Positions 6,483-27,439 of a stretch of 28,364 nt of DNA are shown here, piece by piece. Made by a program: the position numbers and the translations under genes. The stretch is from Psammoneis japonica (lineage: Eukaryota). How positions within the stretch are numbered: position 1 is the stretch's first letter; each line of letters begins with the position of its first letter. Under the pieces are notes generated by a model, which worked only from the letters and a program-made list of their open reading frames with translations, searched no databases and was not told where the DNA came from. The stretch is taken from contig QPGO01000315.1 in NCBI GenBank assembly GCA_008632985.1, positions 62,001-90,364 of the forward strand, written 5' to 3'.

Positions 6483-8225
6483 ATGCATTTTGAATTTATT
6501 GAACATGGGGGTGCCGTCTGTCCGCCGCGCAAGAAGGAATTCCGTGGAAGCACGGGACTTGAGGAAAGGCGCGAAGTTCGCCTGTGTTTTCAGTCCTTCA
6601 GACCCAAGGTCGAGATCATCGCACTCACAATCCGTCTGGGGGGTCCGCAATCACAAGATAGAAGCATCAGCAACGATGGCGAGGACAAGCAACGAAGATG
6701 CGACGTATCGGTGGTAACTTTCAGCGCGGCTCTAATGAAGCAGCTCCTTTTGCAGAAAAGAAGCCATCTAGCTTGGGTGTTTTCATGTCACGGCGGCGGG
6801 AGTGGTGGCGGCCCGATGCAGTGGCGTGGGCATTCAGTGTCGGCTCTGGAAGCATTAAAAAAAGAATACGGAGAAGAAGAAGAAAAGTCGACGATCGTTT
6901 CAAAAACCGTTTGTGGTGAAATTGAAACCGATGCATTGACACTTTCGCGTTATCAGCTATTGGCTGTGCAGCCTAGGCTGCGCTTTTCTCGAATGAGGAA
7001 TTTTGAAGCCGATTCGTGGAATTTGATGGCTCACGAGAAAGCAGATGCCTTTGTCTATTTCGTTAAAATTGAGAAGACCGAATCATACCTCGTCGGTGAG
7101 TCCAGTTATTCAAACCGCACATGGGAAAATGATCGCTCTACGATTTCCAGGCTCCTTCGAAAGCCTTCGCTCGTAGAGAATCCTCGAAAACCATTCCTAC
7201 TCCTCGTGAACAACGACGAGGATGATGAGTTTGACGTTGAGCGTCTTGCCACCCTTTTTGGACTGGGCGGATATGGCTTTGAGCGTCCCTTTCGAGCCGT
7301 GTCGTACTCCTCCAACCAAAGCGATGGCACGTTAAGAGAATCTCTTGAATGGTTGGTCAATACGGCCAGTTCTTCTGATGACGATGTCACGGCCATGACA
7401 GGAAGCGACACCGAAGAGGGAGGATCTGTTGTCACATCCACGACAACTAGCACGGCCGCATCCTCATTCGTTGGCAGCGGCCATTACGTCTTGGACTATG
7501 AACCCACTCTGCTTGGCGGCAATCCAGTCCTACAGCGCTTCGAACCCATCAAGAAAGGAACCCATTGCCCATTTGCTCGCGCGGCCAAACTATGGGGCGG
7601 TAAGTTGGCGGATGAACTCACGCCAAGGTTGAATGTGGACAATCTCGAGGAAGCTGCTTCCTTGAACGCCGGACCATTGGCCGAGTTTGTGGCCAGGTCC
7701 AACAATGGAGAGCCACTCGATGGATTCTGTCTTGAGATCCCAGGAGGAGCATACACTGTTGAGAAACTCGGTGAGAAGGTTCGCGTGCTCTTGACCAAAC
7801 TCGCCGAATTGGATCCATCAGGGGAAAACGCAATGAAGATGGGCCCCTTCGACCATCCGCATTGGCGCTTTCGTTTCGCGGGAGAAGACTTCTTCCTAAC
7901 AACATTTTCGCCCGCATACGGAAAAGAGTCGTCTCGTTATTCCTTTGGGGTCCGGAGGAATTTCCTGCTGTTTCAGCCCATGACTTCCTTTGGCCGTCAT
8001 GGGTTGGTTAGTGATACTCCCGCTTCGGCTACAAACTGGAATACTCCCACCACCATGCGAGACAAGGCCCGCGTGGCTTTCAAGAAGAATGGATGTCCCT
8101 ACCACATCCCCGAAACGTTGCCTTACCCTGTAGCGGAGCACGTCGTGAAGCCAAAAAATGACGACGGGACCACCGTCGTTCGCTGGTGGGAGTCTCCCGA
8201 AGAAAGCCAGCAGCCAGTAGGATAG
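6483..8225 (+). CDS. Fusion protein: degenerate ARF-like small-GTPase fold plus C-terminal YqcI/YcgG-family domain
   Basis: 580-aa ORF; the true start is probably later, e.g. ATG 6735. The C-terminal THCPFA, WRFRFAGEDFFLTTFSPAY...SRYSF and LLFQP motifs match YqcI/YcgG. The middle segment (ADAFVYFV...PFLLLVNN...LFGL...DGTLRESLEWLV) parallels ARF/Arl secondary-structure motifs. Confidence 0.7.
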   Translation: MHFEFIEHGGAVCPPRKKEFRGSTGLEERREVRLCFQSFRPKVEIIALTIRLGGPQSQDRSISNDGEDKQRRCDVSVVTFSAALMKQLLLQKRSHLAWVFSCHGGGSGGGPMQWRGHSVSALEALKKEYGEEEEKSTIVSKTVCGEIETDALTLSRYQLLAVQPRLRFSRMRNFEADSWNLMAHEKADAFVYFVKIEKTESYLVGESSYSNRTWENDRSTISRLLRKPSLVENPRKPFLLLVNNDEDDEFDVERLATLFGLGGYGFERPFRAVSYSSNQSDGTLRESLEWLVNTASSSDDDVTAMTGSDTEEGGSVVTSTTTSTAASSFVGSGHYVLDYEPTLLGGNPVLQRFEPIKKGTHCPFARAAKLWGGKLADELTPRLNVDNLEEAASLNAGPLAEFVARSNNGEPLDGFCLEIPGGAYTVEKLGEKVRVLLTKLAELDPSGENAMKMGPFDHPHWRFRFAGEDFFLTTFSPAYGKESSRYSFGVRRNFLLFQPMTSFGRHGLVSDTPASATNWNTPTTMRDKARVAFKKNGCPYHIPETLPYPVAEHVVKPKNDDGTTVVRWWESPEESQQPVG

Positions 8226-13252: not shown

Positions 13253-14066
13253 CTTGTCTCGTGCGTTGCTCTCTTTGAATTTTGTGAGACGATTTCAAGC
13301 CAAAGCTTAGATCAACCATTGAAGAATAGAGTGAAATGACTTCGACTTTGTTTCATTGCTGCCGAACAGCAGTATAGTTTTTACTTTTGGGTTCGAGGAT
13401 CAAATGCAGGGAAAGAGGGAAAGTCATGCTTGACTGAAGCTTGTTCAAGCGTGAATGCTTGCAAACATTTATAGCCGCGCACAGTCACGTTCGTTTGTTT
13501 GGATTGCGGTGGATAGAAAACATGTCAGCTTGATCAACTTTCGCGGTTCGCGTTTGTTCTTGGCGGATCGCGGGCGGGTTCGCGGTGAAATGGTGAAATG
13601 GCTTCCCGCATGCATTGTTGCTTGAATTCTGCTTTGCTGTCAGTTTGTCTGTCACTCCACAGATGGAATGAAGAGAGTCGTCGCCTGTTTGGTTTTGTTT
13701 CTTGCATTGCTGGACCCTGTGTTCCAGTTTGGGATCAATTGCAGGGAAAGTGGGGCAATCATGCCTGAGCAAGGAGAGTGTGAGTGAGGCAATTCTTGCG
13801 AACATTGCATGTCTGCAATGCTGGCTTTGTGGCATCTTCATCTTGTTGTTTCGGCGCCGCTGGCGCGTGTTTGGGTTGGAGTGGGCTGCACAGCAGCGAA
13901 TTTGAGGAATGTGTTGGCTTTGATTGATTGGTTTTCAGCACTCACTTTTGCAATTTGAAGATCCATGGGAATTGCCATTTGCACTTTTTAAGAATGACTT
14001 CGTGCTTGGAAGGACCCCATGTCTGTCCCGCTGCCCCCCCGGTCTCCTGCTGCCATGCCGCCGGGG

Positions 14067-14387
14067 CTTGATTCGAGCTGCTCTCAAGCAGTTGACCAGA
14101 GTCATGGACACACTGAGGGCTGCTGCTCTGCCAACATGTGCATGTGTCCAGCTTTGTTCTCTGGGGGTGGCCTTCTCCATGCACTGGGGGCTGCTGTTCA
14201 TCCATGAACAGCGGCTTTGTGCATGAAAGGGAGGGCCCCTGCATCTGCTCCGCTCATCGGTCTGTCACTCAACCTTGACTCAAGCTGCTCTCTTGCAGTT
14301 GGTCAAAGTTGTGGCTGGACACATGGTGCTGCTGCTCTTCTGACTTCTGATGTGAGTGCACACCCTGCTTGTTCTCTGGGGAGTGGC
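14067..14387. repeat. Diverged direct repeat of about 105-115 bp (14067-14171 and 14274-14387)
   Basis: CTTGATTCGAGCTGCTCTCAAGCAGTTG...GCTGCTGCTCT...TTGTTCTCTGGGG versus CTTGACTCAAGCTGCTCTCTTGCAGTTG...GCTGCTGCTCT...TTGTTCTCTGGGG. Confidence 0.75.
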
Positions 14388-15481
14388 TGCACCCTGTTCT
14401 TGAGGTGCGCAAATGAGAGCAACGAGCTGGCTGAAGAGCAAAGCATGCTGCTGATCCCCCCTGAGCATCATGAGCTGAAATTCTGTGGTGAAATGCCATT
14501 GTCATCTCTCATCATTTCAATCTCACATGATGTGGCCAAGTGTGGGTCACTTTTTTGCCATGTGGTGCTCAGATTTGCTGAAGACTGGGGAGCATGATGG
14601 AAGCAAAATGACAGGGCCACAGGCCACAGGCCACAGGGAGGGTCATTTTAAGGTGTGCAGAGATGTGTTTGCACCCAATGCATTCTGGCCATGGGCAAGG
14701 CTCCATGTGGCATTGGGCTCATGCAAAATCTTGGTGTGAGCACTGCAGCACAAAGCTGCCAGCAGATGACGAAAATGTGCCAATGACCGAGACAACAGAA
14801 AAGGAGAAGTGACATTTTGTGAGCACCCCAAAACTTGTGCACACTTCAAACACATCATGCCCAGCTTGCCCCAGGGCTTTTCCTGATGGTCAGACACCAA
14901 AGAAAACATCCAGCCCATTTTTGTTCTGGCAGGAGGCGAGTGCAGAAATGAAAAGCCTTTGATGGGATTTGAAGTTTGTCACACATGGGTGCATGTGCTT
15001 TGAGGACTGTGCTCACTTCACATCATTTCATTTCACATTGCATGCATGAAGGGCCTTTTGTCCTGCTGCACGCACACTGAGTCCATTGCTCCACATGATC
15101 CACCCCAGGGGCTGTTGTTGGTGTTTTGCTGCTCTGGGAGGTCTGCAAGGATGACTGTGAAAGGAAGCAGCTGTGATCATGGTCTGCATCTTGGGGCTCA
15201 GGGAACACTTTCTCATGTTCATTCACCAATCCTCTGAAATTTGATCGGGCCACCCAACAGACACAAAATGAGAAAGGTTTGGGGGAACTGTCGTCACCTC
15301 TTGCGATGGGTTCCAGTCCTGGGTGGGACTCCGTGTGACATTGGGCCCGTGGAATTCTGCGTGCGAGCTCCGCAGCAAATTTGTGCTGCAATGAAAATGT
15401 GAATGATCGCCAACAGAAAAGGAAGCAATTTTATGAATGCATCTCCTCCTTCACACTTGGAGCACATCATTGATGGTTTGC

Positions 15482-16430
15482 CCGGGTGTGTTCTTCAGAC
15501 ATTGACGCTGCATCCACGGATTCACCAGGCAAAATTGGCAAAAGTCGGGCATGGCAAAAAGTGTGCATTTGGCCCAAATCGATCATTGAGTGCAAATGGT
15601 GGCATCTTTGGGGTCCCTTTAGTGAGCCGAACATGCGCATTTCTCATTTGACCATCACAGGTCCGTCTCATGGGGGGTGTCAAAACGTCGTGCTTTGACG
15701 CGTCTCGAGGATTAATCGTCACACACAGGGGTCACCGATCTTGTGTTTGTTGTTGTTTGTCATCCCAGACGATCACTCATTCGTCAGACATTGTCGGCAA
15801 AGAAACGTGACAACTGCGCTCAGGTGACTTTTATTTGAACATTTAGTGTGAATTGAGACCACGTCATTGATGATGTCATGAGGGTCTTTCTGGGCAGGCG
15901 TGCATCGGAGCTGCAATGCACTGCCTGACACCGGCCTTGTTTGGCGTCAAAGGCTCAACTAAAATGGCAAAAGATGATGTCAGCAACACATTTGGGAAAA
16001 TGTCCGACGTGTCTTCATGTCTCACGGATTTTATTTGTGAAAATGACAAACACTGCATTTGCGGTCAAATGTGGAAACAAAATCATTTGGACTCATCAGC
16101 AGTGCAATGCTCGCGGAAATGATGCGAAAAACAACAAACACTGGATGTGCGTGCTGCACAATTTTGATCAGATCAGTGATGCCTGCAATGTGATCAGCCA
16201 TTGAGGTCACATAAAATTGAAAATTTACACACCAAAGCACGACATTTTGACACACCCGCAAGACGACCTGTGATGGTCAGATGAGAAATGTGCATGTTTG
16301 GCTCACCAAAGGGACCCCAATGACACCATCATTTGCACTCAACCATCGATTTTGACCAAATGCACACTTTTTGCCATGCCCGAGTGTTGCCTGGTGAATC
16401 CGTGGATGCGGTGTTAAAGAATGCACCCAG
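15482..16430. mobile_element. Non-autonomous TIR (MITE-like) element: about 200-bp inverted repeats at 15482-15697 and 16233-16430
   Basis: GCATCCACGGATTCACCAGGCAA...CGGGCATGGCAAAAAGTGTGCATTTGG...GGGGTCCCTTT...TGACCATCACAGGTC occurs on + in the left arm and on - in the right arm. Outer ends are CCGGGTG and CACCCAG. No clear TSD. Confidence 0.75.
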
Positions 16431-17341
16431 CGTGTTTTCATTCTCACAAATGTTGAAAATGGAAAGCCTTTGGCTTCGCAAAACAGGGAGTGTGAAACCA
16501 TTTCGTAGAATGCAACACGTAGAAATGTGCGTGCGTGACATGCAATGCAATCCAAAAAACTGTTGATGTCACAGTGCAGCAGTGCGAGGTCCCACCCAGA
16601 GCTGGAGCGCGTCTTGTGCGCTTGCTTGCGGTTTTTTTAACTCACTGCTCTGCTTGCAAGCAACCCAAAGCACTGCCAGCTGTGGGCTTGGATGTGCCAG
16701 CGCAGCTCTTCAGACCAGAGACAGAGAGCTCAGCAGCACTCGAGAGGGTGGCAAAGCCTGGTGTCTTCTGTGGACAAAGCTTGCAACGCACAGCTGAAGA
16801 TTTGTGTCCAAGTCAAATCTCTGGTTTCTGGCTCCTGGCAAAAGTTTTGGTGCTCCTTCTGCTTTCCACCACAGCTCTTGCCAGGCTGCGGCAAACCAAA
16901 GGCTTTGATTTGAACACAAGTGCTGGGTCCAAAGTGCAGCCTGCATGGCTGGTGGAGAGCCCCAGTGCTCTCTTGGCTGCCAGCAGCCAGTGTGTTTCTT
17001 TCTTTCTGTGGGCCAACACAAGCTCACACAAGCAAAAATGATCTCCCACACCCCTCTATTTCCACTGGCTGCAGTGTCAGCTGGCTGGTGGTGCAGGTGT
17101 TGTGACACCTGGGAGACTGGCGGGCAACAGCTTTGGGTTGCCACCAAACCTGCACTGACCATCGAGTACAACGAAATGACAAGATTCCAGATTCCTTTTG
17201 ATTCACGAGTTCAATTCTGCATTCGTGACTCGTGACTCGAGTCAAAAATCAACAACCAACAACCAACAATAGAGGTACAAGGTACAACCACTGCGGCGAC
17301 AACATTTCGTAACAACAGAACAACAACAATAGCAAGACACA

Positions 17342-17911
17342 ATGGCATCATCCAGTCAACCCCCTAAATTCATCACCAAAGCAGGAGTTACCAGACTCAA
17401 TCCAGCATATCTCGAATGGAAAAAGAAGACTGGTGGCGTCGTCCCAAAAGCTGCGCCAGCAAGCGAACCACCAATAGACAAGATGCTTGTGCAAGTGACA
17501 ATTCAGCAAGGCGAAGGCTTGGTGGCCAAGGATCGTAATTTACTCGGTAAAAAGACAACGTCGGATCCATACGTGGAAATGATTTTGGTGTCGAATCGTC
17601 AAGACCGCAAACTCGGTAAAACACCCACGGTTTACAAGAATTTGTCGCCCACTTGGAATCACAAAATTCAAACGACAATTGGATATTTGGGAAACGCGAA
17701 TGCACAACTAGCCTTTCGTATTTACGACGAAGATAAATTGTCTGATCCTGACAGTATGGGTGTGGTGACGCTTCCTCTTGTTTGGAAGGAGAGTCATACC
17801 AACGAGTGGTATGAAATCCCAAAAAGTTCTGCCAAGAATGCCTCAGGAAGGATACAGATTGAAATTCAAACCCAACTTCATCGTCTCGAGAACCTTCGAC
17901 CATATGTGTGA
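17342..17911 (+). CDS. C2-domain protein
   Basis: 189-aa intact ORF with GEGLVAKDRNLLGKKTTSDPYV, GKTPTVYKNLSPTWN, FRIYDEDKLSDPDSMG and WYEI, i.e. a C2 fold with acidic Ca-binding loops. Confidence 0.92.
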   Translation: MASSSQPPKFITKAGVTRLNPAYLEWKKKTGGVVPKAAPASEPPIDKMLVQVTIQQGEGLVAKDRNLLGKKTTSDPYVEMILVSNRQDRKLGKTPTVYKNLSPTWNHKIQTTIGYLGNANAQLAFRIYDEDKLSDPDSMGVVTLPLVWKESHTNEWYEIPKSSAKNASGRIQIEIQTQLHRLENLRPYV

Positions 17912-18078
17912 AAAGGAACCGTTTCGACAAATGGGACTATTGTTAGGAAGTGGAAATAGATAGGATTAGCAACTTTTGGCTTGAGTAGTATTTTATTCTC
18001 ACGTGTGTAACTTTCTCTCTAGTAGAGATAGCTTTAGCATCACTCTACTCAATTTTAGTCTGCGCTCTACAAAGGGCT

Positions 18079-18160
18079 ACTTTGGTCACTTTGATGCGTC
18101 TCGACAACTTTCTTTCGTAAACTTTGATCACTTATGCGTCTCAACAACTTTCCTTCGTAA
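18079..18160. repeat. Tandem duplication of about 41 bp
   Basis: ACTTTGGTCACTTTGATGCGTCTCGACAACTTTCTTTCGTAA followed by ACTTTGATCACTTATGCGTCTCAACAACTTTCCTTCGTAA. Confidence 0.85.
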
Positions 18161-18269
18161 ACCTTGTCCAACCTTGAGTAACCAAATGTCTTGTGGCCGC
18201 ACCACGACAAAACCAACACTGCTAGATGAACGCCTGTGCTGCCACATCCTTGACCGCTGCGTTTTTTAT

Positions 18270-18800
18270 CCATGGGCAACAGCGCCGGGATCTTTTCTGC
18301 ATAGGTGGGGATGTCTTGAATCAAATGCAGTAAAAAAACTCCTTGCTCCACTTGTCCAAACACCACGTCTGCTGCACCCAGTTCTGGGCAAAACCTCGTG
18401 TTGCAAAATGCCAAACATTGGCAACAGATCCAATGTCCGATGCATCAAGAGTCCCTTGGTTGAATGAGAAAAATTCTTCTTTCATCCCCCCCCTTTTCAA
18501 TCCAAATCGGTGCTCCCATGATTTGTCCTGCATGGCACATCGCTGTCCCATCACCTGGACTTGTCAGCTCCAAACTGGGCAAATTCCCATCCTCCAATGA
18601 CAATTGCCCATGCAATGGCAGTGGGTTGTCATTGTCCATGGTGGGATTGCACTCAATGCTGGCATGCTTCCAAAGTTAGTCAAACAACAGTCCACCACAG
18701 AAAACCCTGTCAGTGGGAGGTGTGTCGGCACATCATCATGAGTGTGAGGTGTCCCATCTGATGTTGACATGCACGCATCCATGGCAACCTTTTGTGCAAT
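18270..18800 (-). pseudogene. Possible decayed cyclophilin-like coding relic
   Basis: Fragments in different frames (TSPGDGT, KEEFFSF...GSVAN, FCNTRFCPELGAADVVFGQVEQG...IQDIPT) occur in the order of cyclophilin motifs (GDGTG, DENF...SMAN, FITT..CPHLDGKHVVFG.V.EG). By-eye similarity only. Confidence 0.3.
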
Positions 18801-18939
18801 TTTTTTGACAAAAAATCCACAATGTTTTTTGTGTCCATCTCAGCAATTAAGAGCAGCATTTCATGTGCTGCAACTCAACCAACTGTGCATCCCCACCCGA
18901 GTCATCAGCACAGCCCACTCCAGCCCCACCAACAAGGTG

Positions 18940-19215
18940 TGACAGAAATTGAAGGCAAATGGCAAGAATTCAAACAATGACTCCTTGCTGCTGTCTAAAT
19001 GGCAGATGAGTCTCCACTCAGAGACCGTCACAGGAGCCAAAAGACGTGCAAGTCAGTGCAATCGGGCTGCTGTTGTCATTCTTGTGAGCCTTGTGGCTCG
19101 AAAGCAAACTGCATCGCGCACGAACGCGCGGAACTAAAGCACACAAAACTGTGCACGGCAAACTAAACAGCGCGCGACATTTCGCGCGCACCTGAATCCT
19201 GTTCAAATCCTGTCA
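18940..19215 (-). repeat. 3' LTR (276 bp)
   Basis: Direct repeat of 25768-26022 with TG...CA ends. Preceded on the minus strand by a short purine run (GGGAAG), a possible PPT. Confidence 0.95.
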
Positions 19216-22200
19216 CTTCCCAGTTTGCTTGAGGAGCCACAGAAACAGATTCGACTTCAGATGGAATGAAGTTCCAGAACATGAGGGGGCGGAGAAGGCC
19301 CCAGATTTGGGAGCAACCCCAATGCTTGCTGAGAATGTCAGCAGGGTTGCGGGAGCCTTCGATGAAGTGGAGCTCAAGGCAACCAGAGGCAATTGCCTCA
19401 TGCACACAGTGGAATGACAGTGCGGTGTGTCGCTTGTGTAACTTGGAGTGTGGGATGGTGGCACTGTCTACAACCGACTTGTTGTCACCGAACATGCAAC
19501 TGATGTTGTGGATCGGGACGCCAAGGCAGCGCAGGGTGATGCGCAGGTCGACAATCTGCTCGACACAAGTCCTTGTGGCAACAAATTCAGACCCGCAGGT
19601 TGCAGTCTCCATGGTGGCTTGCTTCTTGGAGAACCAATCAGCCGGGAATTTGTTGAGGAAGTGGAGCATTCCCATGACAGAGCGTCCGGTGAGCATGCAA
19701 TGACACAAGTTTGCATCGACGCAGTGGGTGGCAGTGACGAACTTGCCAAGGGGCGGTGGAGCATCCTTCGGGATCATCTCTTCTGCTTTGCCGCACACGG
19801 AATGCATCCATTCACAGGCCGGAGCAGGGAGATCCAAACAGTCGGGCTCTTCTGTGCGAACGCAGAGAGCGCCGTGTCGCATCTTGGAGAGGCACCCACA
19901 GACACGTTTGGCACGATCCAAGTGGCCTTGACGGGGCGCAGCTCGGAAGCTAGAGAGTGACATGACGGCCGTGGCAATGTCAATTCAACCAAGGGACACT
20001 GCCCATTGGAGTGAACCAACAAGAGACTGGAACTTGTGAATGCCATCGGGCCCCAGCAGTTCGGAAGTGTCCAGTTCGGGGTGGTCACCCTTCTCCAGAG
20101 GTGACAGGGCATTGGCGGCAGGTTTCTCCCCAAACAGTCGGGTGCAGCTGTTGACCATGCGCTTGATGCACTTGCGCGGAGACAGGCACAAGGTGCCATT
20201 GGGATCCCGGGAAAAGTCGCAGCCCAGATGGAACTCAATGGGTCCCGCACCCTTGAGCTTGAACTTGCACTTTTCCGTGAGAGTGTCGACGAAAGATTGA
20301 GGGTCCTTCACAGCAATGGCAAGGTCATCCACATAGACGGCAATGCACCCACAGTGGTCGCCGTTCCTGCGCATCCAAATGTTGGGTTCGGCGCGGCAGG
20401 GGAAGAAGCCTTCAGCTCGCAGGCAGTCGGCAAAGCGCTCGTGCCAGTGGAGACCGGAGCTGCGCAGTCCATGCAGGGCCTTGTGGATGACAAGGATGTG
20501 TCCTTCGAGTTTGCCAAATTTGGGTCCGGCTGCAATGTAGAGCTTCTCCTTGGTGGTGGCTTCAAGGTGGGCATTGCCAATGTTGGTGGCCCATGTCTCC
20601 AACTCGTTGAGTTCGGCCAGGAAAATCATCAGCCGAAGGCCACGGAGGGAGACTGCTCCGGAGCAGACACTGTCGATGGGTGCGTCCGTGAGGTGCCCAT
20701 CGGCTGCGAGTCGTGCCTTGTGGCGACCGTCGTGTTTCACGTTGCACACTGGGTGCACTCGGATCTTCTTGTGTCCCGCAGGAGGAGCGGAAGACTCGAA
20801 GGGCCCGCAGTCATGGAAGACTTCGTATTCCTCGAGTTGGTCCATCTCGAGATTAGTTGCGTCTCCCCATTTGCGGTTGCCGTTGCATTCGTCCAGTGAC
20901 ATGGCATGTTTGCAGTTCTGGGGAACTTCGCATCCGCACTTGCAGTGAGGTGCAGTGCGGAAGGAGCAAAGCTTGGCTTGGTTGGCCATGCGAAACAGCT
21001 TCTTCTGGCGCCTCGCGATGGTGCGGAACCGCTTCCAGCCATCAGTGTCGAGAAGTCCGTTCTCTCGTGCATGGATGGCGCAGGTGACGGGGTCTTCCTT
21101 GGCGATGATGGCAAGAGGCTCGGACGTGATCTCCCCACTTTCCCATTCAAGCACAATGTTGTAGCTTGAGCCTTTCCAGGTTGGGTCATGAGGCTTCAGA
21201 GGTCCTTCGTGTGACACGATGCGTCGAAATTTCCAAACAGCAGTGTCTTCGTCTTCTTGCTCAATGTGATTCATGATGTCGTTGCAGGCAAGGACTTCCT
21301 CGTGTTCATCGTTGTTGACAGAGCAGACGAACTTAGTGAGCTCGGGATTGCCGTTCACTTTCCATTCGTGGTCTTCAATGGCCTTGACGATGCGAGCCAT
21401 GTGGCATTGTCCGTCCTCTTGTGGCTGCATGAGGAAGGTGCGTCCGATGATGTCTTGCGGATCGAAAACTGGCATCTTGGGTGTCCTGATCTCCCCATCA
21501 GGAGAATCGACGGGGTTGTCGTCATGGCGAGATTTGATGATGGGTTCAGGTGGCTCCCCATCAGGAGGATCAAGACGCAGGTTTCGAACCGCAGGATCGG
21601 TGGTGGTGGATCATACGTTGGACCGGCCGAGGATCTTCTGAGTCTCATCAGAGAGAATCTTGAAGGTCATCTGGTGACCAACGTGCTCAGCAATGCCAAC
21701 AAAGCGTCCACGCAACTCACGGGATTCGGACAGCCAATCGGAGTCATCGAGGTGGAAGCACACGGGTTCCCACCAGTGAAAGCAAAGCAATGGGCTGATG
21801 TCTGGGGTGGAGCCAGTGAGAGTCTCAAGGGGTGTGTGCCAGTGGAGACGTGGAGACACTGCATGGTTGAGTGTGAAGCACACGCACATGAGCGCCAGCA
21901 GCCATGTGTGGGCAGGCGAACCGAAATGATCCATGACAGTGTTCGCCATGCGCTTCACGGTCTGGTGTCGACGCTCGGCAAAGTTTTGGTGTTGCTGGTG
22001 AGGCTCACTTTGCCAGCTGGAGATGAAGAGGGCTCGTAGGATCCCAAGCACCTTGTTGCTGATCTCAACTTGAGCACGGTCGCCAATGAGTTTGGATGGG
22101 GCACCACGCTCACGGATGTGATCCTCGAGTGTGTTGACAAACTCCTTGTCCGTCTTGGTGCCACAGACGTCAGTGACGGTGGACTCGGTGCCAACAAACA

Positions 22201-24832
22201 GTTGGGCGCTGGTGCAACCAGAGTCGACGGCTGGGGTGTCGGCACAAACGGTGTCAGTGGCGACAGGCTCGTTGCGGCGGTGCACATCAAGGGCGGGGTT
22301 GGGTGATTTGCAGGCCTTCCTAAGGTGTGTACCGGCGGGCATGCGGACGTGCTGCGTGGTGCAGTCAAAAGTACGACGAACCGCATCGGTGGGTGGGAAG
22401 CCAAAGTGAGGCCGAAGAGACTCGAAGGGGGGGTCCTTGGGCTGCACAGTGCGCTCCGGGGGCGGAACGTCGTTGTCCTTGGGGTCAATCGCGTGTAGAT
22501 GACACTCGTAGAACACGTCGTCGTTCGGAATGAGGTGATCATCGAGGGCGGACGCGTGATCGGCAGACAAGGAAGCGGACATGATGGTCTCATTGACAAC
22601 GACACGATGACGGTAGTTGCCGCATTCGTCAAATGGGTTGGCAGTGGGATCGTCCTGCAGGTCAGAGATCGCGTCGCACCACTGGTTGTCGTCAGTGACA
22701 GAGTGATCGAGGACGGAAGGATCCCATGTGTCATCACCGGTGAGGATGACATGGGGCAGGGTGTCCCATTCGGCATCAGTGCAAGGTCGCATGGCAACAC
22801 AAGGCAGGCCGCCCTTGATGTCAATGGGGATGACACAGCCATCAGGAGTGGCAATGCGTTGCAAGCCGTCAAGCACCTTGACAGAGTGATCGTTGACATC
22901 CTGTTTGCACCACTCGAGCTGGCCGCAGGAATGGATGGTCTTGCCCTTGCCCGTGCATGCGCACTGATGGAGGATGGCGATGACGGGACCACGCTGGGTC
23001 TCAATGACGGCACCCGCAGTGACAATGGGGATGTCCACCAATTGATGGTCGTCAATGCCCTGAACGTCGACTTGGCAAGAGGTGCGTGCAATGACGCGAA
23101 CGTCGTCGCCAGCAATGCCGCCGTTGGCCCCACGATCGACTGGAGCACCAGTGCGTGTGGAGCGATGAGCAGAGGCAGAGCAAATGACATTGTGGTCAAC
23201 AACGCGACGGTGAGTGCGGCCGTTGAGTTCCATGTCATCGGCAGAAGCTGGCGGGGTAGAGGGAGCGGCAGATGGCCCTGGTCGACTAGCATTGGGGGCT
23301 TGGTTAGGAGACAACAGACGTTGCAGATCACCGGGTGGCAGTGGCTTGCGCTTGGTGAGGTGCACCAGGATGGGATTGTCCGAAGTGGCATCCACACTTG
23401 GAGCGGAGTCACCAGAGTCAGCAGGAGTCGTGTTGGACAAGTTGACATCACCGTCACTGCCAAGGCGTTGGTCGTGAAGGTTGGCCGCAACGGACTCATG
23501 GAAGTTGCTGGCTCGCGGGTTGCGGGGAGGTGGACGAGAATGCTCAAGGATGATCGCCTTGGAGGAATGGGGCAACGAATCCCAAATCCGTTGGTGGTCG
23601 GGAGGGAGACGTTTCCATTGGTCACCGGCGAGGCTGGGACCACGGGTGCAGGCAGCATTGGCCTGAAGGACGTCAATGTCGCTGTCAATGTCGCAGAACA
23701 CATCGTCGGACGGTTCCTCGGAGCAGACGTCGTGTGCGTGTGTGGCGAGTTGGGGAGCTCGAGGTGTTGTCTTGGGTTGAAACGCACTGTCGCATTGAGC
23801 CGCCACGGAGAGGAGCAAGCCACAGTGTTGATCGTGTGTGAGGCTCTTGCCACTCTGCGTACGATGCTGATCAGCTTGGTTCTTGACAGCACGGAGTTCC
23901 TCGACAGGATGCACGGCATTCTCGAGCATGACACGCTTCTGTCCTTCAGAGAAGTGGTCACTGGCCGGGATGAGTGCCTCGCACTTGCGCAACTGATCTT
24001 GCCAATGAAGGATGAACCCGTGGGTTGGACCTTTCCAAGTGCCATCACCAAGACGTGCGGTGGTGAGGTGCGTGAGCAAAGTGGAGGACTCGACAGATGC
24101 GCGGGTGGAGGCGAGCGCATGCTCAGACAAGGCGCGGTGGATGGTCTGGGCATCAGAAGACCCCACATTTTCGCGAATGAGAGCCTTGCCCTTGTCAGTG
24201 AGAAGGATGCATTCGAAGACGGCGAACATGTGCTTTTGCTGTTCAGCAAAGAGCAGTTTGTCTTCGGGGCTGGTCGGTTTGTACAACGAGTCTAGAACGC
24301 ACTTGACGTCTTGGGCACGGGCTTGTGCCACAAGTGAGGTGTGCCAAGTGTGCCACTGCTTGTCGGATTTGAGAGCCGTGAAAGCGGTGGGGTCACGCTT
24401 GATGCCTCACTTGAAGTCTCACACCGGGTTGCGTGCCTTGGTCGGGTTGGTGACATGCGGAGGTGCGAGGGGTGAGCTGCTGACGGACACAGAAGACATG
24501 TGGTCGGGGCTGAGGCGGCAGGCAAGGAACTCGTCATGCGTGAACAACGAGGAGTCATTGGCAACGTCAAGACCTTCATGTGCTTTGACAATGTGCAGAC
24601 CAATTAGAGCTGCTAACATGTTCTTATAACCGCGGGGCAAAGGGATCACATTGGTGCCGTTGTCGTGCTCAAGCGAGTCGATTTGGGATGGCATGAACGT
24701 GAACAGTTCTTGATGCGAGTCCGTGCCGTCTTGGGTCAAAGCCAAATGAAGAGGGCTCCCAGCACCTTGGGCAAGCACGGCTCCAACAACATGCTCGAAG
24801 CCATCGGTTTGTTGCTGACGAGTGAGAACCAT
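19163..24832 (-). pseudogene. gag-pol polyprotein in a single reading frame, broken by four in-frame TGA codons
   Basis: gag DFK*GIKRDP...AQARAQDV; protease VDRGANGGIAG; integrase ATDTV...GDRAQVE...SEPHQQHQNFAERR; RT KHDGRHKARL, KALHGLRSSG, YVDD; RNase H VDANL...TGRSV, GSEF, FGDNKSVV, NPADILSKHW. The ORFs 24419-24862, 21611-24331, 19985-21475 and 19163-19963 are all in one frame. Stops at 24421-24419, 24409-24407, 21613-21611 and 19987-19985. Confidence 0.95.
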
Positions 24833-24881
24833 GGCAGACAAAAGTGGTGTCAGGACAAGCAATTCTTGTTGGGAAGCGAAG

Positions 24882-24944
24882 GCAGACTTGAAACTTGGGT
24901 GAGAACAGACTTGACTTGAAACAGACTTGACTTGAAATCTTGAA
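24882..24944. repeat. Short ACTTGA/AACAGACTTGACTTGA repeats in the retrotransposon 5' leader
   Basis: GCAGACTTGAAACTTG...AACAGACTTGACTTGAAACAGACTTGACTTGAAATCTTGAA, about 50-110 nt upstream of the gag ATG. Confidence 0.75.
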
Positions 24945-25750
24945 CTACCTTAAAATCAGAAGTCGCTGGGCTGTGCCATCCCGTTCATTGTTGAGTGCTA
25001 AACTTCCCATCCGGTCCGTAGAGTTGTGCCGGCACGTCCGAACCCGCAGCCAGCGGCGCTTTGGGTTGCTTGCGAGCGGAGCAGCGGGTTGTAAACCCCT
25101 GCAGGCAAGCTGACCAGAGGTGGACAAGACCCCCGAACCATTCTCATTTTATGTCGGTTGGATTTCCCGATCAGGCTGGCCAGTTGATGTGGGCGTCAGG
25201 CGCTGTGGACGAACGAACAAACGCGGGAAAACACCCTCGCCCCAACGCAGGCTGCAATCACGGCTGCTTGCTCTCACAGTCGTCCTCGTGGACCTGGCAG
25301 AACTGCAGAGCACCAGCAGTCTGGGGTAGATCAGGTGCAATGGACTCGGTGTGCTTGTAGAGTGGTGGCAAAACCGCAGTCCGAAGAGTGGGTGCAAGTT
25401 CTTGGCCGTGAAGATGTGTGCATGTGTGTGTCTTCAGCGACGAAGATCCTTGAATGTGTGGGGTTCTTGACCATCAACCGATGAATGGGCACATCAAGGG
25501 ATGAGGATCAAGGATGGACTTGGACATGACCGTTGAATGCATGTCTTCAGCGATCAAAGGTGGCACAATCAATCCAGATGTCCAGCGGCAAGGGGACTTG
25601 ACGGTGACGTTAAATTCCTGCCGATGCCTGGCATTGAACGCGCGTAGACTTGCCGATGTACGTAGAACATGTGTGGAGGTCCACGCAGAATTGAAAAGCG
25701 TCGTCGGTAAATCAACGACGACGATGGCGGTTGCTCAATGGGTTGACAAT

Positions 25751-25767
25751 GAGCAAGACTGTTGATC
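25751..25767 (-). promoter_or_regulatory. Putative primer-binding site complementary to a tRNA anticodon arm
   Basis: Directly abuts the 5' LTR. Minus strand reads GATCAACAGTCTTGCTC with no TGG; its complement reads CAAGA-CT-GTT-GA-TC, which resembles a tRNA anticodon stem-loop. Confidence 0.5.
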
Positions 25768-26022
25768 TGACAGAAATTGAAGGCAAACGGCAAGAATTCA
25801 AACAATGACTCCTCACTGCTGTCTAAATGGCAGATGAGTCTCTGCTCAGAGACCGTTGCAGGAGCCGAAAGACGTGCAAGTCGGCACAATCAGGCTGCTG
25901 TTGTTATTCTTGTGAGCCTTGTGGCCGCGAACGCGCGGAACTAAAGCACACAAAACTGTGTGCGGTAAACTAAACAGCGCGCGACATTTCGCACGCACCC
26001 AAATCCTGTTCAAATCCTGTCA
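25768..26022 (-). repeat. 5' LTR (255 bp; about 21 bp shorter than the 3' LTR)
   Basis: Direct repeat of 18940-19215 with TG...CA ends, followed by the TSD AGGTG. Confidence 0.95.
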
Positions 26023-27439
26023 AGGTGCCCCCAAAGCCACCCAACAAAACTGAGACACCAAAACTGCTGCATGCTCCAAGGCTGCATTGAAACAATTGAG
26101 AGTGCTGCATCCAGACCTCCTCTTGCAAAAGTCCGTGCCATTCCAAAAAGCTCCAACAGCAAGAGAGTGCAGTCTCCCACTTTTAAGAGCAAAACAAAAT
26201 GTGCCAAGCCAATCAAGAATGTCGCTGCCAAGCTGTGTGCACATGTCCCCTTGTGAGAGTTGTGCTCATGCTGGCACCACAAAAAAACAATTGTGCCAGT
26301 GCCAGTTGACAACATGGATTCCCCTCACAAAACTGTCCCTGTCATTTTGCCTGTCCAAGTCTTGGTTGGTGCGCGTCCATTTTGGGCAACTTGACTGTGA
26401 TGGTGGAAAAACCCATGGCCAGAAATAGAAAAAAAAGAAGATGTCCCTTGATCTGCCCCAACTGCCAACACATTTCCACTTGGAGATGAGGGTGCAGAGC
26501 TGCCAAACCGCAGCTGTCAGCAGCTTTGCCATGCAAGAGACTTCTCCAGGGGAGCAAAGCCTTGCTTGCCATTTTGGCTGGGCAGATGCTCCAACTGAAA
26601 TTGCCACAACAATCAAAAGTGCTGCATCTTCTAAAACAGTGAAATGTCTCAACAAGAGGGCCTGTGTTGCTCCAAAGAAAAGAGCATTTTTTCTTGTTCG
26701 AGAGCCAGCGATTCACTCTTGTGCGTCATTTGCAGTGTGCCATCATCCTGAGCGGAGGCTGTGGCATGAAATCTGAGTGTGTCATCTACAAGTTGGGCAC
26801 AGCAGCAAGCCAGTGTTTTGTGTGACTGCCCCATCTCAATGGTTGATGCGGTCGACGATCCCTGCTGTTGGTGTGAGCCATGAAGGACGAGCCCCTCCCC
26901 AATCATGGTGGAAGGCACGGCTTTTTTCAGGCCACTCTGCCTTGGACCTTTTCTCTTTCTTGTCTCAATGAGAAGCATTGTTGGCAGCAAAAGCACAAAC
27001 AATCTTCAAGCGCAAGCAACGTTTGGTTGCAGTCATTCTCGTTCTTTTTTTGTTGTTGGCTCTTGCTGAGCTCGCTCTCTTCTCCCGCCCCAAGTCTTTT
27101 TTGCTGGTGTTTTTCCACTTGCTTTTCAGGACTTCTCCTGTCACCACAATTGAGCCGCTTCTCTGGTGCTTTTAACGCCCAGTTACAATGATCCATCATG
27201 GTGGCTTGCTTCAAAATGTCATTTGGTTAATGAGGCATGAGGTTTGATGACGCTCGCTCCATCATGCGTCAAGCCATCCACGCGCGCGCCGCGCGGCGCC
27301 ATCGTCGGTCAGTCGTACGCGCACGACACACAATACATCATCAATCCTTTTTTTTTGGCGATCGCAACGACATCAACACGAGCCAACACACAAAACCGAA
27401 CAACAACGCGGTCGACAACAAATCTTGCTCTCAACGAAG

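Follow-up and report, generated by a model that had tools for sequence, protein, structure and literature searches.

We have analysed a stretch of 28,364 nucleotides from Psammoneis japonica (contig QPGO01000315.1, positions 62,001 to 90,364; this whole stretch is called the window below), in which a Ty1/copia retrotransposon carries two long terminal repeats (LTRs) that differ from each other in an unusual way. We consider it probable that, after integration, the DNA of this element and of the repeats around it was altered on both strands by a process converting TpA steps to TpG or CpA, and that CpG steps decayed in addition. The comparisons presented here demonstrate in which direction the changes went, that both strands were used, that the two LTRs were altered independently and that, within the window, the changes are confined to repeat DNA.

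Differences between the LTRs of one insertion

Positions 18940-26022 are occupied by one Ty1/copia insertion of 7,083 bp on the minus strand (Table 1), which shows both hallmarks of an LTR element, TG..CA ends and a 5-bp duplication. Because the target duplication is intact on both sides, the element represents a single insertion.

A global alignment of the LTR at 18940-19215 (276 nt) with that at 25768-26022 (255 nt) gave one gap of 21 nt and 20 mismatches at 14 sites. All 20 mismatches were transitions, with 0 transversions, and every difference was located in a pyrimidine-purine step. Considering that such steps cover 132 of the 255 aligned columns, the chance that 20 of 20 random changes would fall within them is about 0.52^20 = 2e-6, with the requirement for transitions not counted. 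In older pairs of repeats elsewhere in the window, transversions accounted for 6/19, 7/26, 7/21 and 6/10 of the differences. The mutation pattern of the LTR pair is real and unusual. An initial annotation of this DNA had described an indel of about 21 bp and 13 further sites with 19 base changes, all of them transitions within pyrimidine-purine dinucleotides. The indel and the nature of the changes were confirmed, and the counts were corrected to 14 sites and 20 changes, the additional site (19120) adjoining the indel and depending on the alignment. Its six sites with TG in one LTR and CA in the other and its two TA/CA sites were recovered, and the class with CG in one LTR and TG or CA in the other was found to have six members instead of five.

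At the six TG/CA double sites, each LTR carries three TG and three CA products. Both products are therefore present in each LTR, as expected from the earlier proposal that these sites record hits on opposite strands in the two LTRs.

Further family copies allowed the gap to be polarised. The stretch is partly contained in one sample (coded runs X1-X4), in which X1 has 52% of the sampled words; segments at which X2-X4 have no depth were left out of account. A contig of run X3 with a loose end at 19108 reads on through the 21-nt segment, indicating that other family copies carry it, and the indel is accordingly a deletion in the 25768-26022 copy. The same X3 copy reads TA at 19110-19111, where the 18940-19215 LTR has TG.

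Direction of the changes

A search for relatives of the element's polyprotein found 1,230, and the 120 among the matches listed showed 51-63% identity. The frame of the window, with stops written as X, was aligned with 70 homologues, those ranking first by id among the 83 sized 1750-2000 aa (from these 120). Columns conserved at 80% or more were regarded as conserved, and the window copy differed at 109 of the 755 such columns.

The conserved Tyr columns were the most affected: Tyr was lost in 35 of 39, and in 31 of these it was replaced by Cys (25) or His (6), the remaining columns showing Phe (3), Trp (1) or a retained Tyr (4). At conserved Arg columns, the window has Cys in 4, His in 4 and a stop in 2, and Arg is kept in 43 (42 as CGN codons). 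In the same alignment, 84 changes at conserved columns were explained by one unambiguous step. They comprised 34 A>G (29 in T[A], with the changed base in brackets), 10 T>C (9 in [T]A), 12 G>A (11 in C[G]), 9 C>T (8 in [C]G) and 19 transversions.

The composition of the element points in the same direction. Its protein contains 0.41% Tyr, 3.56% Cys and 5.31% His, against 3.87+-0.34, 0.94+-0.21 and 3.53+-0.38% in the 120 homologues listed. The internal region has a GC content of 0.564, against 0.48 in the flanks, and observed/expected (o/e) ratios of 0.13 for TpA, 0.82 for CpG, 1.40 for TpG and 1.58 for CpA; in the genic kilobases of the window, TpA o/e is 0.36-0.76 and CpG o/e about 0.8-1.3. 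Conversion of TpA to TpG or CpA is the main process and CpG decay a second and weaker one, because the conserved columns polarise in this way and the composition, which requires no alignment, agrees. We also considered an element that is intrinsically poor in TA. This was rejected since conserved Tyr residues were lost and since 78 related metagenome loci have a median TpA o/e of 0.73, so that the family is not TA-poor by nature.

Confinement to repeat DNA

TA-poor DNA forms two zones with sharp edges, 13501-17250 and 18251-27250, which contain 0-3 TA per 250 nt compared with 6-15 elsewhere in the window. Within the window, the loss of TA is confined to repeat DNA. In the neighbouring host gene TYW1, 8 of 9 conserved Tyr are kept and none is changed to Cys or His, a result that selection alone would also give. 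The old repeat zones are CpG-poor as well (o/e 0.2-0.58), and because of this the order of events suggested by the composition is that TpA was lost first and CpG later.

Age of the insertion

The exact empty site was found in X1, where a contig of 995 nt (depth 48.1) contains AGGTG once and passes from 18932 directly to 26021. Because this site is present, the insertion is polymorphic or heterozygous in the X1 sample. In the left flank, 7 letters of this contig deviate from the window, among them the CA/TG pairs 18841-2 and 18876-7; in the right flank, 26021-26300 (280 nt), there were 0 differences. The naive LTR divergence is 7.8%, with no difference outside pyrimidine-purine steps. The view that LTR dating would overestimate the age of the element, already put forward in the initial annotation, is thus supported by the lack of background change at 7.8% divergence together with the empty site.

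Related loci in metagenomes

Two copia fragments among the related metagenome loci bear the same TpA mark as the element of the window. In L046 (2,766 nt), TpA o/e is 0.02 and Tyr is kept at 1 of 37 positions, with Cys at 8 and His at 14; in L062 (2,561 nt), TpA o/e is 0.33, and its 32 positions show Tyr at 15, Cys at 4 and His at 6. Four others (L054, L057, L003 and L011) have CpG o/e of 0.03-0.23 (0.03 in L054) and an ordinary TpA of 0.50-0.61, and their hosts apparently show CpG decay only. Because these loci are CpG-poor with ordinary TpA, the TA process would be host-specific.

Self-comparison revealed a direct repeat of at least 90 nt, with the copies over 3.5 kb from each other, in 20 loci. 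No fewer than 11 of these resemble overlaps left by assembly, being 91-124 nt long and in most cases 100% identical. Spectra of terminal repeats came from L001, L045 and L057 only, whose contigs are possibly chimeric; the terminal repeats of two related contigs, again possibly chimeric, had spectra unlike that of the LTR pair in the window. L001 is a case in itself: positions 1-537 and 7493-8029 differ at 20 places, of which 19 are transitions and at least 12 are C/T differences in CC/TC or CT/TT on one strand. This could be a different, strand-specific signature or an assembly chimera. A scan of viral contigs with the protein alignment gave 23 pattern matches, none of which was a relative.

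Other copies of the family and gene conversion

The family is abundant in the sample. In X1, 14,327 contigs match the element at a likeness of at least 80%, where the summed depth over the element does not equal copy number, and the family variant places on the stretch comprise 518 transitions and 65 transversions. The depth percentages given below rest on the 40 listed of 590 variant places, and 35 of these 40 fall within the element.

In 7 of the 35 listed in-element rows, the variant was of the TA type. The share of family depth with TA, where the window has TG or CA, was 83% at 20169, 70% at 25562, 63% at 25516, 42% at 19508 and 20% at 19058. Position 20169 belongs to codon 1611, which is TGC (Cys) in the window and TAC (Tyr) in the family, and 63 of 70 homologues have Tyr there. 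At 19527-8, within codon 1825, the window reads CA and hence TGC (Cys), and TG, hence CAC (His), accounts for 42% of family depth; 67 of 70 homologues have Tyr. Codon 1825 presents the same pattern as the TG/CA sites of the LTRs, in this case with the ancestor known. Position 19058 lies within a TG/CA site of the LTRs, and the paired row for 19057 is absent among the listed places; the 20% of depth with TA gives a faint suggestion that some family copies have TA at 19057-8. In 23 of the 35 rows, TG or CA in the window stands against CG in most of the family depth, including 19039, 19055 and the stops at 19987 and 24421, and the remaining 5 rows fit neither class.

Such a family offers plentiful donors for gene conversion, by which one or both LTRs would have been overwritten from differently mutated copies. 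Imported tracts would look alike, considering the excess of transitions in the family variation. However, the variable sites are interleaved along the whole LTR and form no single tract, and conversion moves variants derived from TA or CG without creating them, so that the underlying process would still be required. We regard gene conversion as an unlikely account of the LTR differences.

Both strands of DNA after integration

In the retroviral replication scheme, both LTRs are copied from one template. Changes made before integration would be shared by the two LTRs, and a TG facing a CA between them would be impossible. Since six LTR sites carry opposite products and the target duplication is intact, the mutations arose after integration, in the DNA itself, where they hit both strands and the two LTRs independently, in agreement with the initial annotation, which had also argued that RNA editing before reverse transcription does not fit.

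According to that alternative, A-to-I editing acted on the genome RNA before reverse transcription, and the LTR differences were otherwise caused. It gains some support from the protein, in which Cys exceeds His at conserved Tyr codons by 25 to 6 (binomial p 0.0009), that is, A>G on the sense strand exceeds T>C. It also gains from the preference of RNA-editing deaminases for U before the edited A, as quoted in passages of a preprint (bioRxiv 10.64898/2026.01.13.699255). On the other hand, T>C on the sense strand is present too, and the asymmetry vanishes in Tyr codons that follow a purine (His 10, Cys 11), being confined to those that follow a pyrimidine (His 3, Cys 18). The excess of Cys therefore tracks the neighbouring base and not an RNA strand. 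Moreover, L046 has the opposite excess, old non-coding repeat DNA with sharp borders is TA-poor as well, and allelic flank DNA shows CA/TG pair differences. Considering these results together with the opposite products in the LTRs, we judge RNA editing to be distinctly unlikely. A bias tied to the transcribed strand was likewise rejected, since the neighbouring base accounts for the asymmetry between Cys and His.

The dependence on the neighbouring base would fit a modest preference for T-A-pyrimidine on either strand. A simple context rule tried for the surviving TA steps did not apply to both strands. Of the 48 retained TA steps, 31 are CTA/TAG; for the TA steps of genic DNA, the share is 206 of 517.

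Ancestral state of the TG/CA sites

The initial annotation had left open whether the TG/CA sites descend from TA or from CG. We counted the steps of the LTR pair as 12 CG/CG, 6 CG/x, 6 TG/CA, 3 TA/TA and 2 TA/CA. The per-copy loss of CpG is 0.20 from the CG/CG and CG/x steps of the LTRs, and 0.19 from the CGN codons of Arg. At this measured rate, CpG decay predicts 0.34-0.38 discordant TG/CA sites, whereas 6 were observed (P(>=6) about 2e-6), and a model with a single rate for CpG only was rejected (G 9.5, p 0.002). A loss of TA of about 0.8-0.9 per copy, as at the Tyr codons, fits the 6 discordant and the 2 half-hit sites. Accordingly, the question has been mostly settled by the Tyr codons, the CpG-rate model and the family copies: the ancestral state of these sites was most likely TA.

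The CG vs TG/CA sites, by comparison, result from ordinary CpG decay, as the family has CG in 92% of depth at 19039 and 95% at 19055. A CG ancestor in the family, the mark of methyl-CpG decay, was thus found, and it accounts for part of the LTR differences only. If all variable sites were ancestral CG, the six TG/CA sites would have to be hot CpGs hit in both LTRs. This explanation is served by the Arg to Cys, His or stop changes at 10 conserved columns, by the 23 of 35 listed rows with a CG majority, by the polarisation of 19039 and 19055, and by the four in-frame stops of the polyprotein, which are all TGA and two of which trace to CGA. Nevertheless, it is largely refuted by the conserved Tyr columns, of which 35 out of 39 no longer have Tyr, and it also leaves unexplained a TpA o/e of 0.13 beside a CpG o/e of 0.82, the TA found in family copies at TG/CA positions of the window and the excess of discordant sites. 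CpG decay as the sole cause is therefore very unlikely.

Points that weigh against the proposed process

Several results speak against a post-integration loss of TpA as the dominant process, or limit its reach. The relatives used for polarisation are distant (53-63% identical), and part of the Tyr loss could be older than the insertion at 18940-26022. CpG decay is substantial in the family comparison, with 23 of the 35 listed in-element rows against 7 of the TA type and 5 of neither. Among the 40 listed of 590 places, direct family evidence for TA covers one of the six TG/CA sites of the LTRs (19057-8). The retained TA steps favour a 3' purine on the plus strand (36/48), with no counterpart on the other side. 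Finally, X1 does not show the left-flank haplotype of the window, and the window copy lacks base-by-base independent confirmation.

This last point would suit an assembly or base-calling artefact, in which G or C would be called in place of modified bases at TA and CG of silenced DNA and which would leave variants unconfirmed in independent reads (X1 having 52% of the words), but we consider it extremely unlikely, because systematic miscalls in identical LTR contexts would agree and not oppose each other, the X1 contig equals the TA-poor flank at 26021-26300, CA and TG are polymorphic among copies within X1 itself at 19527-8, and two metagenome contigs from other assemblies share the loss of Tyr.

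Structure of the element and surrounding features

Table 1. Positions of the element, its LTR differences and the surrounding repeat DNA in the window
Feature	Positions	Strand	Basis or remark
Older repeat zone, TpA-poor and CpG-poor	13501-17250	none	0-3 TA per 250 nt
Island of normal TpA	17251-18250	plus	9-14 TA per 250 nt; holds C2-domain frame
Old repeat, left flank hosting the insertion, TpA-poor and CpG-poor	18251-18939	none
Left target-site duplication, AGGTG	18935-18939	none	direct reading; same pentamer beyond the other LTR
3' LTR (element orientation), 276 nt	18940-19215	minus	TGACAG start, CTGTCA end
TG/CA double sites (6)	18986-7, 19015-6, 19029-30, 19057-8, 19154-5, 19193-4		LTR alignment
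CG vs TG or CA sites (6)	18960, 19039, 19055, 19064, 19120, 19186		LTR alignment
CA vs TA sites (2)	19077, 19159		LTR alignment
21-nt segment kept in the 18940-19215 LTR only	19098-19118	none	alignment gap
Internal region of the Ty1/copia element	19216-25767	minus	dinucleotide composition, RVT_2 match
gag-pol polyprotein frame	19271-24832	minus	tblastn with P0001 residues 1-1834, 55.9% identity
5' LTR (element orientation), 255 nt	25768-26022	minus	TGACAG start, CTGTCA end
Right target-site duplication, AGGTG	26023-26027	none	direct reading; single copy in the empty-site contig
Old repeat, right flank, TpA-poor and CpG-poor	26028-27250	none	from 27251: 6-15 TA per 250 nt

Between the LTRs, a minus-strand frame of about 1,900 codons encodes a copia-type reverse transcriptase, with a Pfam match to RVT_2 (E 6.6e-23; score 82 bits, cut-off 31.6). 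It is collinear with full-length homologous polyproteins, residues 1-1834 of P0001 corresponding to 24832-19271. No Pfam model of integrase matched in the window copy or in the intact homologues P0001 and P0011, in which only RVT_2 was found. On the sense strand of the element, a purine-rich run (reverse complement of 19216-19225, ...CTGGGAAG) adjoins the LTR at 18940-19215. The four in-frame stops of the polyprotein, all TGA, are located at 24421-24419, 24409-24407, 21613-21611 and 19987-19985; among the listed variant places, the family has G at 19987 and 24421, which gives CGA on the sense strand.

The polyprotein frame passes the end of the homologues by about 36 codons and enters the LTR (19163-19271, minus strand). 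The same TA-erasing process may have removed the stop codon that originally ended the frame.

In all six frames, 18940-26022 contains 293 TGA, 25 TAA and 34 TAG; the corresponding counts for 13 kb of genic sequence are 469, 232 and 219. TAA and TAG are nearly erased because both contain TA, and therefore long spurious reading frames are present on both strands of the element, for example at 22499-24295 on the plus strand (598 aa).

The older repeat zone at 13501-17250 contains inverted fragments at 15066-15301 and 16612-16719, which are 74-80% identical to the 5' region of the element, and an inverted repeat of 197 nt (15502-15697 and 16233-16417, 84% identical). The fragments and the repeat are remnants of older related insertions. 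At 13501-14500, the plus strand has 137 TG against 69 CA, opposite to the copia element, in which CA exceeds TG; sequence context, replication or the direction of transcription are possible sources of this asymmetry.

The reading frame at 17333-17911 encodes a C2 domain (Pfam C2, E 1e-17). The flanking gene TYW1 has radical SAM, flavodoxin and wyosine domains, and its organism-named matches are all diatoms, which identifies the host as a diatom; a look-up of the gene in the Atlas was no more specific than Eukaryota. It lies at 1-1996 on the minus strand as two frames overlapping at 746-894, where the overlap reflects either a short intron or a frameshift.

Proposed mechanism and its implications

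In the mechanism that we propose, the element would have inserted into a diatom nuclear genome, and two dinucleotide-specific transition processes would then have acted on its DNA. The dominant and nearly saturating one would convert TpA to TpG or CpA, by an A:T to G:C change on either strand of the palindromic TA. The slower one would convert CpG to TpG or CpA, as in the deamination of 5-methylcytosine in a silenced transposon. When the same ancestral TA was hit on opposite strands in the two LTRs, one would show TG and the other CA. The older repeat DNA around the element would bear the same marks from the same processes. As for the chemistry, enzymatic deamination of adenine in DNA, with inosine read as G, and aimed at silenced or foreign chromatin, would be the most likely one, and it has been proposed for the same signature in Bigelowiella natans; modification of thymine may serve as an alternative. 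Pfam domain searches of the window found no deaminase gene in it.

A process of this kind has practical consequences. LTR-divergence dating would be badly inflated in such genomes. The loss of Tyr and the gain of Cys and His in transposon proteins would cause homology tools to miss them, and TA-poor DNA without TAA and TAG in six frames would produce false long reading frames in gene calling. A natural TpA-specific editor of adenine in DNA would be an enzyme class worth seeking. The two LTRs serve as an internal before/after control, and diatoms have genetic tools available and great ecological weight.

Comparison with known systems

Repeat-induced point mutation (RIP) of ascomycete fungi resembles the process proposed here in that it is a repeat-directed DNA process of dinucleotide context on both strands, which inactivates transposons and falsifies LTR dating. 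Its direction is the reverse: RIP changes C:G to T:A, mostly CpA to TpA, so that TpA rises and GC falls. RIP was rejected for this element on the basis of its TpA o/e of 0.13, its GC of 0.564 against 0.48 in the flanks and its polarised changes from TA to TG or CA; in addition, no change of CAG or CAA to a TAG or TAA stop, as RIP would leave, was found in the polyprotein frame. Methyl-CpG decay covers the six CG vs TG/CA sites, the Arg changes and the CpG-poor older repeats. However, it spares TpA and would cause neither the loss of Tyr nor an excess of discordant TG/CA sites.

ADAR-type hyperediting of RNA and APOBEC3 hypermutation of cDNA (G to A) also leave clustered, deaminase-type transitions in retroelements, and ADAR favours U before A. 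ADARs are animal enzymes. With either of them, a single strand is hit ahead of integration, and the changes are copied alike into the two LTRs, whereas the LTRs here differ and both strands were hit.

Among the Ty1/copia elements of diatoms (CoDi groups; Maumus et al. 2009, PMC2806351), the passages searched describe RVT_2, short LTRs and a 5-bp duplication, in common with the present element. LTR pairs in those passages are mostly more than 95% identical, compared with the 7.8% divergence found here, and dinucleotide-specific mutation is not mentioned in them.

The closest likeness is with the chlorarachniophyte Bigelowiella natans (Mettrop et al., bioRxiv 10.64898/2026.01.13.699255). According to the passages of this preprint considered here, mutation-accumulation lines show de novo A:T>G:C changes at TpA only, on both strands of integrated foreign DNA, the rate in DNA integrated from giant viruses and virophages being about 6e-7 per site and generation. 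The TpA-poor coding sequences of B. natans are enriched for transposon domains (reverse transcriptase, DDE endonuclease), and an ADAT2-like DNA adenine deaminase was proposed, not demonstrated. Both cases share an A:T to G:C change that is confined to TpA and whose product, TpG or CpA, follows from the strand hit, its restriction to foreign or integrated DNA, and a lasting depletion of TpA with enrichment of CpA and TpG. The corresponding features in our data are A>G and T>C changes on TpA, on both strands of chromosomal DNA, and confined to repeats within the window.

The two cases differ in several respects. B. natans is a rhizarian, and the present host is a stramenopile diatom. Single-copy inserts of giant viruses and virophages are affected there, and a high-copy LTR retrotransposon with old repeats is affected here. 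TpA o/e is 0.45 in the region of nucleocytoplasmic large DNA virus (NCLDV) origin there and 0.02-0.17 per kilobase here, where CpG decay also accompanies the loss of TpA. The evidence there consists of de novo events, while here it derives from an LTR pair and from polarisation with proteins.

Judging from the parts of the preprint considered, this 2026 work on a rhizarian alga is the one earlier report of TpA-directed hypermutation of integrated DNA, and we found no report of it in diatoms in the literature searched. We tentatively put forward an idea that may well prove wrong, namely that diatoms have an active, chromatin-directed defence that edits adenine in DNA. In a silenced transposon, such a defence would convert almost all TpA steps to TpG or CpA and, like tRNA adenosine deaminases, would prefer T-A-pyrimidine. 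It would act alongside CpG methylation, within borders sharp to the kilobase. It would be the same system as in chlorarachniophytes and old within the stramenopile-alveolate-rhizarian (SAR) lineage. If so, Tyr codons and TAA and TAG stops would be wiped out, GC would go up, and LTR clocks would be of no use in these genomes. An LTR retrotransposon of a diatom with the signature known from the viral inserts of B. natans would make the phenomenon a wider process of genome defence or mutation in eukaryotes.

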